A stretch of 61,043 bases of DNA, from positions 1 through 61,043 of IMG/VR virus record IMGVR_UViG_3300030117_002966; one strand, written 5' to 3'. How positions within the stretch are numbered: position 1 is the stretch's first letter; each line of letters starts with the position of its first letter. Source of the DNA: a virus (taxonomy: Duplodnaviria; Caudoviricetes). A model generated the notes under the pieces. It made no database searches. It saw only the letters and a program-made list of their open reading frames with translations, and was not told the origin of the DNA. Below, one piece after another: positions 56,727-58,375 of this stretch. Made by a program: the position numbers and the translations under genes.

Positions 56727-57030
56727 AACATGTAAACACCTCTAACGGGTGGGGAAGATGAAAATAGCAAAATAGTATTGCACCCCACCCAAAAGAGATT
56801 ATGTTCCATGAGTCCCCAACACTGTAAGATGTGGCCGTAGGAGTAGGTGCACCTTTTGGAAGAGGCAAGTGTATCAGTGAGTCTAATAAACTTTCGAGCA
56901 TGGGGACAAGAGGGGTTGCCTGACAAGTGATGGCGAAGGGCCAGTGACATAAGCCCGCCCGAACGTTAAACGTAGCGACGTGACCCCAGCCCAGTGAGTC
57001 GGCCACCTCTAGGTGGTGGGGCAGCTGGGC
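56727..57030 (+). ncRNA. candidate structured ncRNA A
   Basis: No credible ORF; four consecutive stem-closed domains; shares loop with ncRNA B. Confidence 0.6.
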
Positions 57031-57032
57031 GC

Positions 57033-57052
57033 TTTTCCACACGGGTGGAAAA
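57033..57052. repeat. palindrome, copy 2
   Basis: TTTTCCAC-ACGG-GTGGAAAA. Confidence 0.8.
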
Positions 57053-57083
57053 ACCTTTATATAGGCAGACCCGTTGGTATATT
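57051..57083 (+). promoter_or_regulatory. early-type promoter
   Basis: AAACCTTTATATAG...TTGGTAT, ATG at 57084. Confidence 0.75.
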
Positions 57084-57236
57084 ATGACTAGGAAACACTT
57101 TAGAAAAATAGCTAGTATTCTCCGCGAGAGAAGAGCAGACCCAATGCTAATAAGGGACTTCGCCACAATGTGCGCGCTTGAGAATGAATACTTCGATTAT
57201 GAAAGATTCTACACCGCGGCAGGATTAAAGGAGTAA
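57084..57236 (+). CDS. conserved small phage protein (MTRKHF..IA...N..FD..RF)
   Basis: Leaderless start after the promoter. Confidence 0.7.
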   Translation: MTRKHFRKIASILRERRADPMLIRDFATMCALENEYFDYERFYTAAGLKE

Positions 57237-57266
57237 AGCTTATATAGGCACACTCATTGGTATACT
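57235..57266 (+). promoter_or_regulatory. early-type promoter
   Basis: AAAGCTTATATAG...TTGGTAT, ATG at 57267. Confidence 0.75.
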
Positions 57267-57410
57267 ATGACAAAAATACAAGACATGAGAAACGACTTTC
57301 GTTTCCGCCGAGCACCACGCAGAACCATCACTAAAAACAAGATTGACTTAGGAGTCCATGAGCAACTCATGGCTATCCGTCTAGGTCTTGCTGAGGATGT
57401 GAGAAAGTGA
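57267..57410 (+). CDS. 47-aa hypothetical protein
   Basis: Leaderless start. Confidence 0.6.
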   Translation: MTKIQDMRNDFRFRRAPRRTITKNKIDLGVHEQLMAIRLGLAEDVRK

Positions 57411-57523
57411 GAAGCATCTTAGATATTTTAGATGACATGGTCATCTCTGGTATAGATGACGCAGGGGACTATATTGTCCTCTGTGGCTGTGAAGACGCAC
57501 CTTGTTGCGGGTGTAACAGATGA
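57407..57523 (+). CDS. small Cys-rich protein (CGCEDAPCCGC)
   Basis: GTGA overlap; read by hand. Confidence 0.55.
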   Translation: MRSILDILDDMVISGIDDAGDYIVLCGCEDAPCCGCNR

Positions 57524-57637
57524 GTTACGACAAACCACTCAAACGCAGTTGGAAAAAAGAAACAAATAAGATTATCAAAAAGGCCAGCCAATAGCTCGTT
57601 TGTTTTCAACCTCCGGGGGGTAGGGCCTCCCCCCACC

Positions 57638-57656
57638 TTTTCCACGCGAGTGAAAA
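57638..57656. repeat. palindrome, copy 3
   Basis: TTTTCCACGCGAGTGAAAA. Confidence 0.8.
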
Positions 57657-57689
57657 AATCTTTATATAGACCCCCACGCTTGGTATTGT
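57655..57689 (+). promoter_or_regulatory. early-type promoter
   Basis: AAAATCTTTATATAG...TTGGTATTGT, ATG at 57690. Confidence 0.75.
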
Positions 57690-57926
57690 ATGACTAAAAA
57701 CTTGTGCGGGAAAACCCGAAAGACAGATGACCCTTATGAGGTCTGGACTGGCCCACGTGGCTTTGAATGGAGAGTATTGAAGAAATACCAAGCTCCTGAG
57801 AATGAAGCAAAAAATCCTCACGCTAGATGGTTTTGTGCTGTCAAATCAGATTTCACCTATGGTTCTTTTGAATTAGGTGATGTCTATGTTAGTGAGATTA
57901 AATCAATGGGGACAAAGCTTATATAG
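57690..57926 (+). CDS. conserved hypothetical phage protein
   Basis: WRVLKKYQ...ARWFCAVKS..T.GS.ELGDVY. Confidence 0.75.
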   Translation: MTKNLCGKTRKTDDPYEVWTGPRGFEWRVLKKYQAPENEAKNPHARWFCAVKSDFTYGSFELGDVYVSEIKSMGTKLI

Positions 57927-57947
57927 GCACACCCTATTGGTAATACA
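57914..57947 (+). promoter_or_regulatory. early-type promoter driving a non-coding unit
   Basis: AAAGCTTATATAG...TTGGTAATAC then a hairpin instead of a long ORF. Confidence 0.75.
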
Positions 57948-58375
57948 GAGCGGGGAGATGAAAATAGCAAAATAGTATTGCACCCGCTCACTTACAGTTA
58001 TCAGCTGTAACACGTGACCTGACAAGGAAACAAAATCGAACCATACGCCAGTAGACGAACACTACATAACAAACTTAAGCTGAACAGTGCTGACCAATCC
58101 CTTACCGGTCGATGGCCATCTTAGTAGATTTACGACGTGCAGCTAACATTATGTATCACCTTTGAATCACTTAGTCCCTGTTATAAGTCAAGTCGTCGAA
58201 GCTATGAGTATCACACCTGTTCTTGCTTGTGTTCACCTTTCGTGAAGGATATCCTTTTGACTGGTGACAGGTCACACCCTATGGGTTGCTACCTATGAAG
58301 ATTGTCGCGCCCTCGGCAACCGCTCCCTGAGGTGTTTCTTAAACACGCGGAGCCTCAGGTGAAGTTGCATTTTAT
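57948..58375 (+). ncRNA. candidate structured ncRNA B
   Basis: Own promoter; no long ORF; long-range stem 58014-21/58268-75 plus local hairpins. Confidence 0.7.

Follow-up and report, generated by a model that had tools for sequence, protein, structure and literature searches.

A portable 27-nucleotide RNA module at hairpin tips recurs on different non-coding RNAs of unrelated viruses

Results

Two hairpins of a viral genome share a 27-nucleotide module

The DNA analysed here, referred to as the window, is the whole IMG/VR virus record IMGVR_UViG_3300030117_002966 (61,043 nucleotides (nt); Duplodnaviria, Caudoviricetes), which is 87% complete according to CheckV, and it contains two copies of a hairpin whose large loop holds the same 27-nt RNA module, the subject of this work. 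The window encodes PolB, ribonucleotide reductase, a large terminase, a tape-measure protein, a Cas4-like nuclease and a phytoene/squalene synthase-like protein; neither tblastn with PolB nor the protein atlas gave a host assignment. To our knowledge, the non-coding RNAs (ncRNAs) encoded by marine archaeal-type viruses are essentially unexplored. The parts of the two hairpins, with stem lengths in base pairs (bp), are as follows.

56747 to 56790, + strand: hairpin copy 1, outer stem of 8 bp formed by 56747-56754 (GGGTGGGG) and 56783-56790 (CCCCACCC)
56755 to 56782: loop of copy 1, 28 nt, an unpaired A at 56755 followed by the 27-nt module at 56756-56782
56767 to 56781, + strand: inner mini-helix of copy 1, GCAA (56767-56770) with TTGC (56778-56781), 7-nt apical loop
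57948 to 57989, + strand: hairpin copy 2, outer stem of 7 bp formed by GAGCGGG (57948-57954) and CCCGCTC (57983-57989)
57955 to 57982: loop of copy 2, 28 nt, an unpaired G at 57955 followed by the 27-nt module at 57956-57982
57967-57970 with 57978-57981, + strand: inner helix of copy 2

An initial annotation, made from the letters of the window, had placed two hairpins at these positions and described their loops as identical in 27 of 28 bases. Both hairpins are indeed found there, and the loops differ at their first base only (A versus G), the 27-mers that start at 56756 and 57956 being identical. When up to 3 mismatches were allowed, the 27-mer occurred at exactly 2 sites in the window, both on the + strand, and it had 0 matches in 100 dinucleotide shuffles of the window. 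The two hairpins fold more stably than their shuffled counterparts (z of -2.8 and -3.4), and a covariance model scored copy 1 at 77.5 bits and copy 2 at 69.8 bits, the next match in the window having 11.7 bits (E 1.1).

The module recurs in viral and marine metagenome contigs

Searches with words taken from the module showed that it recurs beyond the window. An exact 26-mer was present in 20 viral contig stretches, and a 21-mer in 24 viral contig stretches and in at least 118 stretches of marine metagenome contigs. Among 185,579 species genomes, the 21-mer was found in 1 stretch, a single copy with no stem in a Glaciecola metagenome-assembled genome (L031), which we take as a chance match, and the GenBank phage records had no match for the 2.8-kb region or for the 59-nt hairpin. 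After removal of duplicates, 96 unique contexts were obtained for the exact 21-mer and 107 when variants were included; these numbers, and the counts over 107 (or over 90, 94 or 95 in earlier tallies) given below, refer to unique contexts among the matches listed. Chance matches had been dropped before counting, namely L025-L030 (AT-rich and stem-less), the stem-less L031, and L198-L210. In 88 of 95 contexts, the module does not overlap any open reading frame (ORF) of at least 60 amino acids (aa); the orientation of the nearest ORF was too noisy to be informative.

The module is previously undescribed. Rfam 15 was searched with the window, the hairpin alone and the three-way form described below, and it contained no family for the module, the best matches having E values of 0.6-10 and lying at least 30 bits under the gathering threshold. 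Full-text literature searches on manA and wcaG RNAs, on magroviruses and on structured RNAs of archaeal viruses in metagenomes gave no description of it, and PMC11706807, when searched by term, had nothing on non-coding RNA, riboswitches or promoters. The module does not qualify as a kink-turn or box C/D element (the L7Ae site) either: tandem sheared G.A pairs to which both strands contribute (C and D boxes), and which define the motif, are missing, since a single variable base separates the mini-helix from the 3' arm and leaves no GA on the 3' strand, and models of C/D snoRNAs gave E values above 8. A mimic of a CRISPR repeat is likewise not indicated, given the single stem-less copy of the 21-mer in the species genomes and an E value of 7.1 for the CRISPR-DR62 model.

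The conserved unit is the module, on stems that covary

The conserved unit is the 27-nt RNA module, not the entire hairpin. It consists of an A-rich strand of 11 nt, a mini-helix of 4 bp with a 7-nt loop, in which positions 12-15 (GCAA) pair with positions 23-26 (TTGC), and one variable base. The compensating stem changes on which the initial annotation had based its proposal of a selected RNA hairpin came from two stems only, that is, merely from different sequences; real covariation is supplied by the relatives. Over 69 distinct hairpins, 94% of the cells of the outer stem pair, versus 35-46% when the partner column is slid by 1-3 positions; 0 of 500 shuffles reached a covariation score as high as that observed, and double-sided changes occur in 7 of the 8 outer-stem pairs. 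The proposal of an RNA-type hairpin under strong selection is thus borne out. The length of the stem ranges from 6 to 10 bp and is 7-8 bp in 63 of 94 contexts, and ACC follows the stem in many contexts.

The inner helix covaries as well. Among the 34 viral matches, 24 have C:G and 5 have U:A at pair 13:25, with 0 single-sided changes. The U:A copies, which were found with the covariance model and with a degenerate scan, occur in 6 unique stem contexts over all loci, and two contigs (L082 and L054) each carry one standard copy and one U:A copy. Position 20 changes from G to A alone in L193 and L196, and together with a change of position 7 from A to U in L022, L157 and L159. A pseudoknot of positions 5-7 with positions 20-22 is unsupported, because position 20 also changes alone. 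Positions 1-2 and 27 vary freely. A scan in which positions 8-11 and 16-19 were left free revealed no true variant, its 13 extra loci all being stem-less chance matches, and a scan with positions 21-22 free revealed none either. When the flanks of the three-way-junction form were used as an anchor that is independent of the loop, 8 stretches were retrieved and the module was present in 8 of 8 (6 standard, 2 with U7/A20).

The module is placed on several different RNAs

In the window, copy 1 lies upstream of one ncRNA, which we call ncRNA-A, and copy 2 lies at a transcript start upstream of another, ncRNA-B. The neighbouring features are as follows.

56659 to 56727, + strand: tiny ORF of 22 aa (MNKYQSSLLTWLVGISYATRKL), stopping 19 nt before copy 1
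56800 to 57035, + strand: ncRNA-A, structured, about 240 nt, directly 3' of copy 1
57914 to 57947, + strand: archaeal-type promoter, TATA box (TTATATA) at 57919-57925 and TTGGTA at 57937-57942
57990 to 58011, + strand: second small hairpin, TTACAG...CTGTAA, between copy 2 and ncRNA-B
58007 to 58360, + strand: ncRNA-B, about 350 nt, non-coding, 3' of copy 2
59078 to 59249, + strand: manA RNA (RF01745), 69.2 bits, without the module here

Of the 59 pairs predicted for ncRNA-A, 29 show compensatory changes in an alignment of 17 sequences. Neither ncRNA-A nor ncRNA-B has a match in Rfam. ncRNA-B is the sole part of the region 56500-59300 that is covered at 99-100% identity in 4 marine metatranscriptome studies, whose RNA-library contigs span 58007-58350, while the ORFs that flank it are uncovered in RNA libraries or have only relatives of less than 95% identity there. 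In all 4 studies the contigs begin at 58007-58013; it should be noted that there is an indel polymorphism at about 58012, so that these starts may be assembly breaks rather than RNA 5' ends, and nothing firm about the hairpin follows from them. The hairpin, ncRNA-A and manA were uncovered in the four runs compared, an absence that carries no weight. The small hairpin between copy 2 and ncRNA-B opens with ACTTAC, a motif that is frequent right after the module.

The contexts found among the relatives were distributed over the following classes, which may overlap, with 24 of the 107 contexts being unclassed or too short.

20 of 107: directly upstream of ncRNA-A
13 of 107: three-way-junction form, in which the 5' arm and the module are separated by an additional arm and by conserved joining strands
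12 of 107: behind a manA-like RNA, assigned by sequence pattern
7 of 107: behind a further RNA, ncRNA-C
7 of 107: behind another RNA that shares a GGCGAAG core with ncRNA-A
5 of 107: at most 70 nt upstream of tRNA-Glu(UUC), assigned by sequence match

The manA RNA, known from earlier work on cyanophages and marine metagenomes, is present in the same viruses as the module and is physically fused to it in at least six loci. Rfam manA scored above gathering in 6 of 20 loci scanned, and every match ended at the first bases of the hairpin; the module thus lies outside the manA model, which ends where the hairpin begins, and is inserted in the 3' tail of manA in relatives, whereas the manA of the window is untagged and other carriers exist. 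In contig L060 the hairpin sits between the closing helix of manA and its ACCUUA tail, next to the putative pseudoknot strand of that tail, from which we conclude that the ACCTTAY motif found behind many hairpins is the 3' tail of manA. Viruses with archaeal-type promoters may be the source of many "marine" manA RNAs. As for the tRNA class, ARAGORN detected tRNA-Glu(UUC) beside the module in L063, L117, L149, L123, L067 and L194. ncRNA-C precedes the module in a 37-kb virus type that is unrelated to the window, inside a non-coding stretch of about 530 nt.

An ORF of at least 40 aa starts within 40 nt downstream of the module in only 2 of 94 contexts and is missing within 120 nt in 82 of 94, which argues against the hairpin as a translational operator of a downstream gene.

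Several smaller observations concern these carriers. The 22-aa ORF encodes a hydrophobic and then basic peptide, and its ATG is coupled by an ATGA overlap to the TGA of the preceding ORF; its 3' end is conserved upstream of copy-1-type hairpins, and the ORF is missing in hairpin-less sister genomes. A core related to that of ncRNA-A (GACAAG...GGCGAAGGGC) is present in a second RNA family upstream of tRNA-Glu (L013, L039, L041, L079 and L117). tRNA-Glu(UUC) is the only tRNA found in these viruses (including L007, from genome G006), and it begins 13-25 nt past the module in several contigs. ncRNA-C is a recurrent structured element that starts with ACCGGCTACCA...CTCCGG...GTGGGG (positions 6145-6675 of L190, from genome G010; also in L006, L051 and L130). 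Directly 5' of the manA of the window, a small hairpin GGGCA...TGCCC is followed by ACCTTATT (59037-59074, + strand), and the tail motif ACCTTATT also closes manA at 59244-59251.

The module is in sense orientation to promoters

Between 55 and 59 kb of the window, small genes of the + strand lie behind promoters composed of TTATATAGG, 10 nt and TTGGTA, and the ATG of its leaderless genes is located 27-28 nt past the first T of the box. Such spacing is the geometry of archaeal TATA promoters with leaderless mRNAs. The same spacing places the transcription start site of the promoter with its box at 57919 at about 57946-57947, 1-2 nt before the stem of copy 2 begins at 57948, in agreement with the earlier proposal that this copy lies at a predicted transcription start. 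A same-strand TATA box was found 30-39 nt upstream of the module in 24 of 107 contexts, the hairpin thus being the predicted 5' end of an RNA; in an independent tally, the box was present at that distance in 21 of 90 contexts on the same strand and in 0 on the opposite strand.

A palindrome, TTTTCCAC-N4-GTGGAAAA, is present at five sites in this part of the window (55985-56004, 57033-57052, 57638-57657, 58376-58395 and 59357-59376), each just upstream of a TATA promoter, with a chance expectation of 0.01. A viral transcription regulator probably uses this sequence as its operator. Two promoters, those at 56516 and 57919, are without it.

The module is dispensable and behaves as a cassette

The window belongs to a set of sister genomes (with G001, G002, G006 and G007), whose PolB proteins are 59-89% identical. 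G006, G007 and the unrelated 37-kb genome G010 each had one strong match to the covariance model. G001 and G002, both 100% complete, had none, and the module is therefore dispensable. At the locus of copy 2, G001 and G002 retain the promoter and the downstream RNA as well as a stem with compensating changes (GAGTGGGG paired with CCCCACTC), and their loop consists of 12 nt of unrelated sequence; this same short loop is also present at the locus in L014, L137 and L156. Because the stem is kept while the loop is swapped for a short one, the module acts like a cassette placed on the tip of a helix that was already there. With a conserved word from ncRNA-A, 16 stretches were retrieved, and of the 9 that were new, 8 were hairpin-less and 1 had the three-way form. 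Transposon-like insertion was considered and rejected, as there was no target-site duplication (the longest shared flank had a mean of 3.90 nt versus 3.83 ± 0.10 nt when permuted).

A viral partner of the module was sought by presence and absence, and no ORF of the window was shared by G006 and G007 while missing in G001 and G002. G010 and the window have one small ORF in common.

Discussion

A proposed docking tag for a trans-acting factor

Among the readings that had been offered for the hairpin, a protein-binding aptamer fits best, and we infer the binding from the way in which the module is conserved and distributed. Our tentative proposal, which we hold with less than even confidence, is that the module is a portable RNA docking tag for a conserved trans-acting factor, probably of the host, that acts on the fate of the RNA carrying it. 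This fits best because the unpaired bases are invariant, the mini-helix covaries, the orientation is sense, the placement is peripheral, unrelated viruses share the module, and no viral gene is linked to it. Viruses would graft the module onto peripheral sites of many different ncRNAs, such as promoter-driven RNA 5' ends, the spacer that separates an mRNA from ncRNA-A, the linker within the manA 3' tail, the leader of tRNA-Glu and the three-way junction, and would display it at the tip of whichever helix carries it, where the invariant unpaired bases could be read by one conserved factor. Since the module is common to unrelated viruses and its presence is not followed by any viral gene, this factor would most likely be an RNA-binding protein or ribonucleoprotein of the host, and the module would then point to a conserved host factor exploited by viruses. 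Binding would affect the maturation, end-protection or turnover of the carrier RNA; alternatively, the tag might titrate the factor.

Several observations weigh against this proposal. There are only 1-2 copies per genome, a low number for a sponge. The same ncRNAs are made by sister viruses that lack the module, and the module is hence not needed for the basic maturation of these RNAs. Most copies were fetched with exact 20-26-mers, so that the invariance of the loop is partly due to construction, and unbiased support is limited to the degenerate scans and to the anchors that do not depend on the loop (the flanks of the three-way junction and the ncRNA-A word). The 5' arm of the stem is strongly purine-rich, with 291 G-C versus 16 C-G pairs, for which a docking tag gives no reason. 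A test of the strand by wobble pairs was weak, as the 14 G.U/U.G versus 4 A.C pairs come from register-optimised stems with lineage redundancy, and the counts were 22 versus 18 in an ungapped alignment. Finally, the ATG and the stop codon in the loop are conserved throughout, which equally fits a translated element.

The proposed tag has counterparts in known systems. Like lambda boxB/nut and the operator of the MS2 coat protein, it is a short, portable hairpin with a conserved loop on a covarying stem, often located near promoters or at gene junctions. It differs from these phage operators in that its loop of 27 nt contains a mini-helix, no cognate viral protein was found, it is carried mostly on ncRNAs and it occurs in unrelated viruses; moreover, its binding is proposed from sequence. 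The CsrB/RsmZ sponges also present an invariant loop motif on variable stems to capture one protein, but they carry many copies per RNA, whereas the module is present 1-2 times per genome (2 in the window, and one strong match each in G006, G007 and G010).

In practical terms, the module provides a handle on viral ncRNAs, as it is sharply defined, portable and present in more than 100 contexts, and marks RNA starts, ends and junctions. It ties manA to at least four further structured RNAs that are absent from Rfam, and the sister genomes constitute a natural control, with tagged and untagged versions of one RNA.

Alternative explanations

One alternative requires no protein, and we regard it as unlikely: the module would be a self-sufficient fold, either a tiny ligand aptamer or a tertiary docking module, whose A-rich strands pack on the mini-helix. 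The near-total invariance of the unpaired bases around a covarying 4-bp helix is what such a fold would predict, and the insertion within the tail of manA, beside a putative pseudoknot strand, is consistent with it. The association with manA itself also points in this direction, as manA has been an orphan riboswitch candidate since 2010 (PMC2864571). In addition, the A-to-U change of position 7 is confined to copies with A at position 20 (3 contexts), where a Watson-Crick pair would result; however, the changes of position 20 alone mean that a 7:20 pair is not required. The presence of at least five unrelated carriers and of bare 5' ends leaves no common docking partner evident, the 82 of 94 contexts with no ORF nearby offer no obvious expression platform, and no aptamer in Rfam matches.

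The initial annotation had also read the loop as a minigene, AUG AAA AUA GCA AAA UAG. Its translation would tether or regulate the carrier RNA, act as a ribosome decoy or drain a tRNA. Part of this has stood up: with positions 1-5 left free, every real context retained the ATG, the stop (TAG or TAA) was kept in 34 of 34 viral matches with position 20 free, the frame is never broken, and the three variant classes (MKIVK*, MIIAK* with TAA, and MKIAK* with TAA) preserve all three, one of them making a second AUA codon. A purine-rich run precedes the AUG. The variation, however, is structural and not coding. Third-codon positions show 0 changes in any context, so there is no synonymous variation, and the changes affect second positions (AAA to ATA, GCA to GTA), where they are non-synonymous, or the stop. 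Whenever codon 4 shows the C-to-U change, a G-to-A change accompanies it 12 nt further downstream, beyond the ORF, and the base pair is thereby restored. Given that synonymous sites are invariant and that the coupled change extends past the ORF, coding does not account for the conservation. The purine run, which had been taken for a Shine-Dalgarno-like arm, is the paired 5' strand of the stem, and many copies are preceded by large structured RNAs, at a long distance from a 5' end. The lambda bar minigenes likewise have a very short AUG-to-stop frame with AUA in a virus, but here the frame is embedded in a hairpin loop and the pattern of conservation is structural. We consider the minigene improbable.

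About as little credence can be given to a related proposal, in which the AUG, four codons, stop and purine run would make the 27-nt cassette a tag that engages the ribosome or a translation factor and couples orphan RNAs to the host translation machinery. Viruses would then copy the cassette into helix tips of manA, ncRNA-A, ncRNA-B and the tRNA-Glu leader, and the swapped loop at the ncRNA-B locus could be a snapshot of cassette exchange between hairpins.

It is equally improbable, in our opinion, that the hairpin serves as tRNA-like punctuation, that is, as a stacked minihelix (about 11-12 bp, capped by a 7-nt loop and frequently trailed by ACC) that host tRNA-processing enzymes would cut to free the neighbouring RNAs. 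The module does occur at junctions of RNA units (ORF and ncRNA-A, manA and the next unit, an upstream RNA and tRNA-Glu, a leader and ncRNA-B), the stems are mainly of 7-8 bp atop the 4-bp helix, ACC follows many of them, and the extra arm of the three-way form is located exactly where the other arms of a tRNA would be. Yet ARAGORN calls no tRNA at the hairpin sites, the apical loop is unlike a T-loop, the stem varies from 6 to 10 bp, generic mimicry does not need 25 invariant bases, and sister genomes process the same RNAs without the module. The closest comparison here is the MALAT1 mascRNA, also a small stacked-helix element that borders a long structured RNA; the module differs in that it is not recognised as a tRNA, its invariant loop is not generic and any processing at it is putative.

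Still less probable is an RNA signal of the nut/boxB or put kind, located near the promoter, that would modify the transcribing polymerase and thereby allow read-through of arrays of structured RNA genes. The 24 of 107 copies at a fixed distance just past a promoter would fit such a signal, as would the location of the remaining copies within multi-RNA arrays. On the other hand, several copies end a unit, being followed by a run of five T (L019) or by a new promoter (L074 and L081), and no cognate viral protein tracks the module.

Least credible of all, and very improbable, is a hairpin acting at the DNA level, where an HUH endonuclease would nick or a primase initiate, as in the origin stem-loops of CRESS-DNA viruses, which also have an invariant loop, variable GC-rich stems and a nonanucleotide by the 3' arm. 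The 9 nt that end the loop, adjoining the 3' arm, may resemble the origin nonanucleotide of circoviruses and nanoviruses, the U:A variant being an apparent exact match, and the variants seem to fall where that motif varies between virus families; nevertheless, the loop is three times longer, no Rep/HUH gene was found, and the strict sense orientation with fixed spacing to promoters, the three-way-junction forms, the insertion inside the manA RNA and the lack of target-site duplication all argue against it. With regard to the enzymes, PF01797 (Y1 transposase) was found in 0 of 5 module-carrying genomes, its control being positive in 6 of 14 genomes, PF02407 (Viral_Rep) was found in 0 of 5 with a control that was silent, and no HUH family was among the Pfam and PHROG matches of 39 window proteins.

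The suggestion that the loop is an antisense seed was not upheld, as the carrier viral genomes have no complementary stretch of at least 10 nt in common and the 185,579 species genomes contain no complement of the 21-mer; the matches in G007 are the module itself on the other strand.

Other features of the viral genome

Elsewhere in the window, the squalene/phytoene synthase-like gene (501-1106, + strand; Pfam E 5e-25) has counterparts with 55-98% identity in the sister viruses and may be an auxiliary metabolic gene. An HNH endonuclease-like ORF (9321-10202, + strand; PHROG E 1.7e-18) has no counterpart in the five genomes compared, an absence suggestive of a homing endonuclease that has inserted beside PolB. 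A GIY-YIG-like ORF (55018-55356, + strand) matched with an E value of 1.8e-4, just under the Pfam cut-off. Finally, the non-coding segment 59380-59800 contains iteron-like repeats of GCTCTACTNAG (7 imperfect copies) and of TCTCAGYTCAG (3 copies), which may constitute a replication origin or a protein-binding array.

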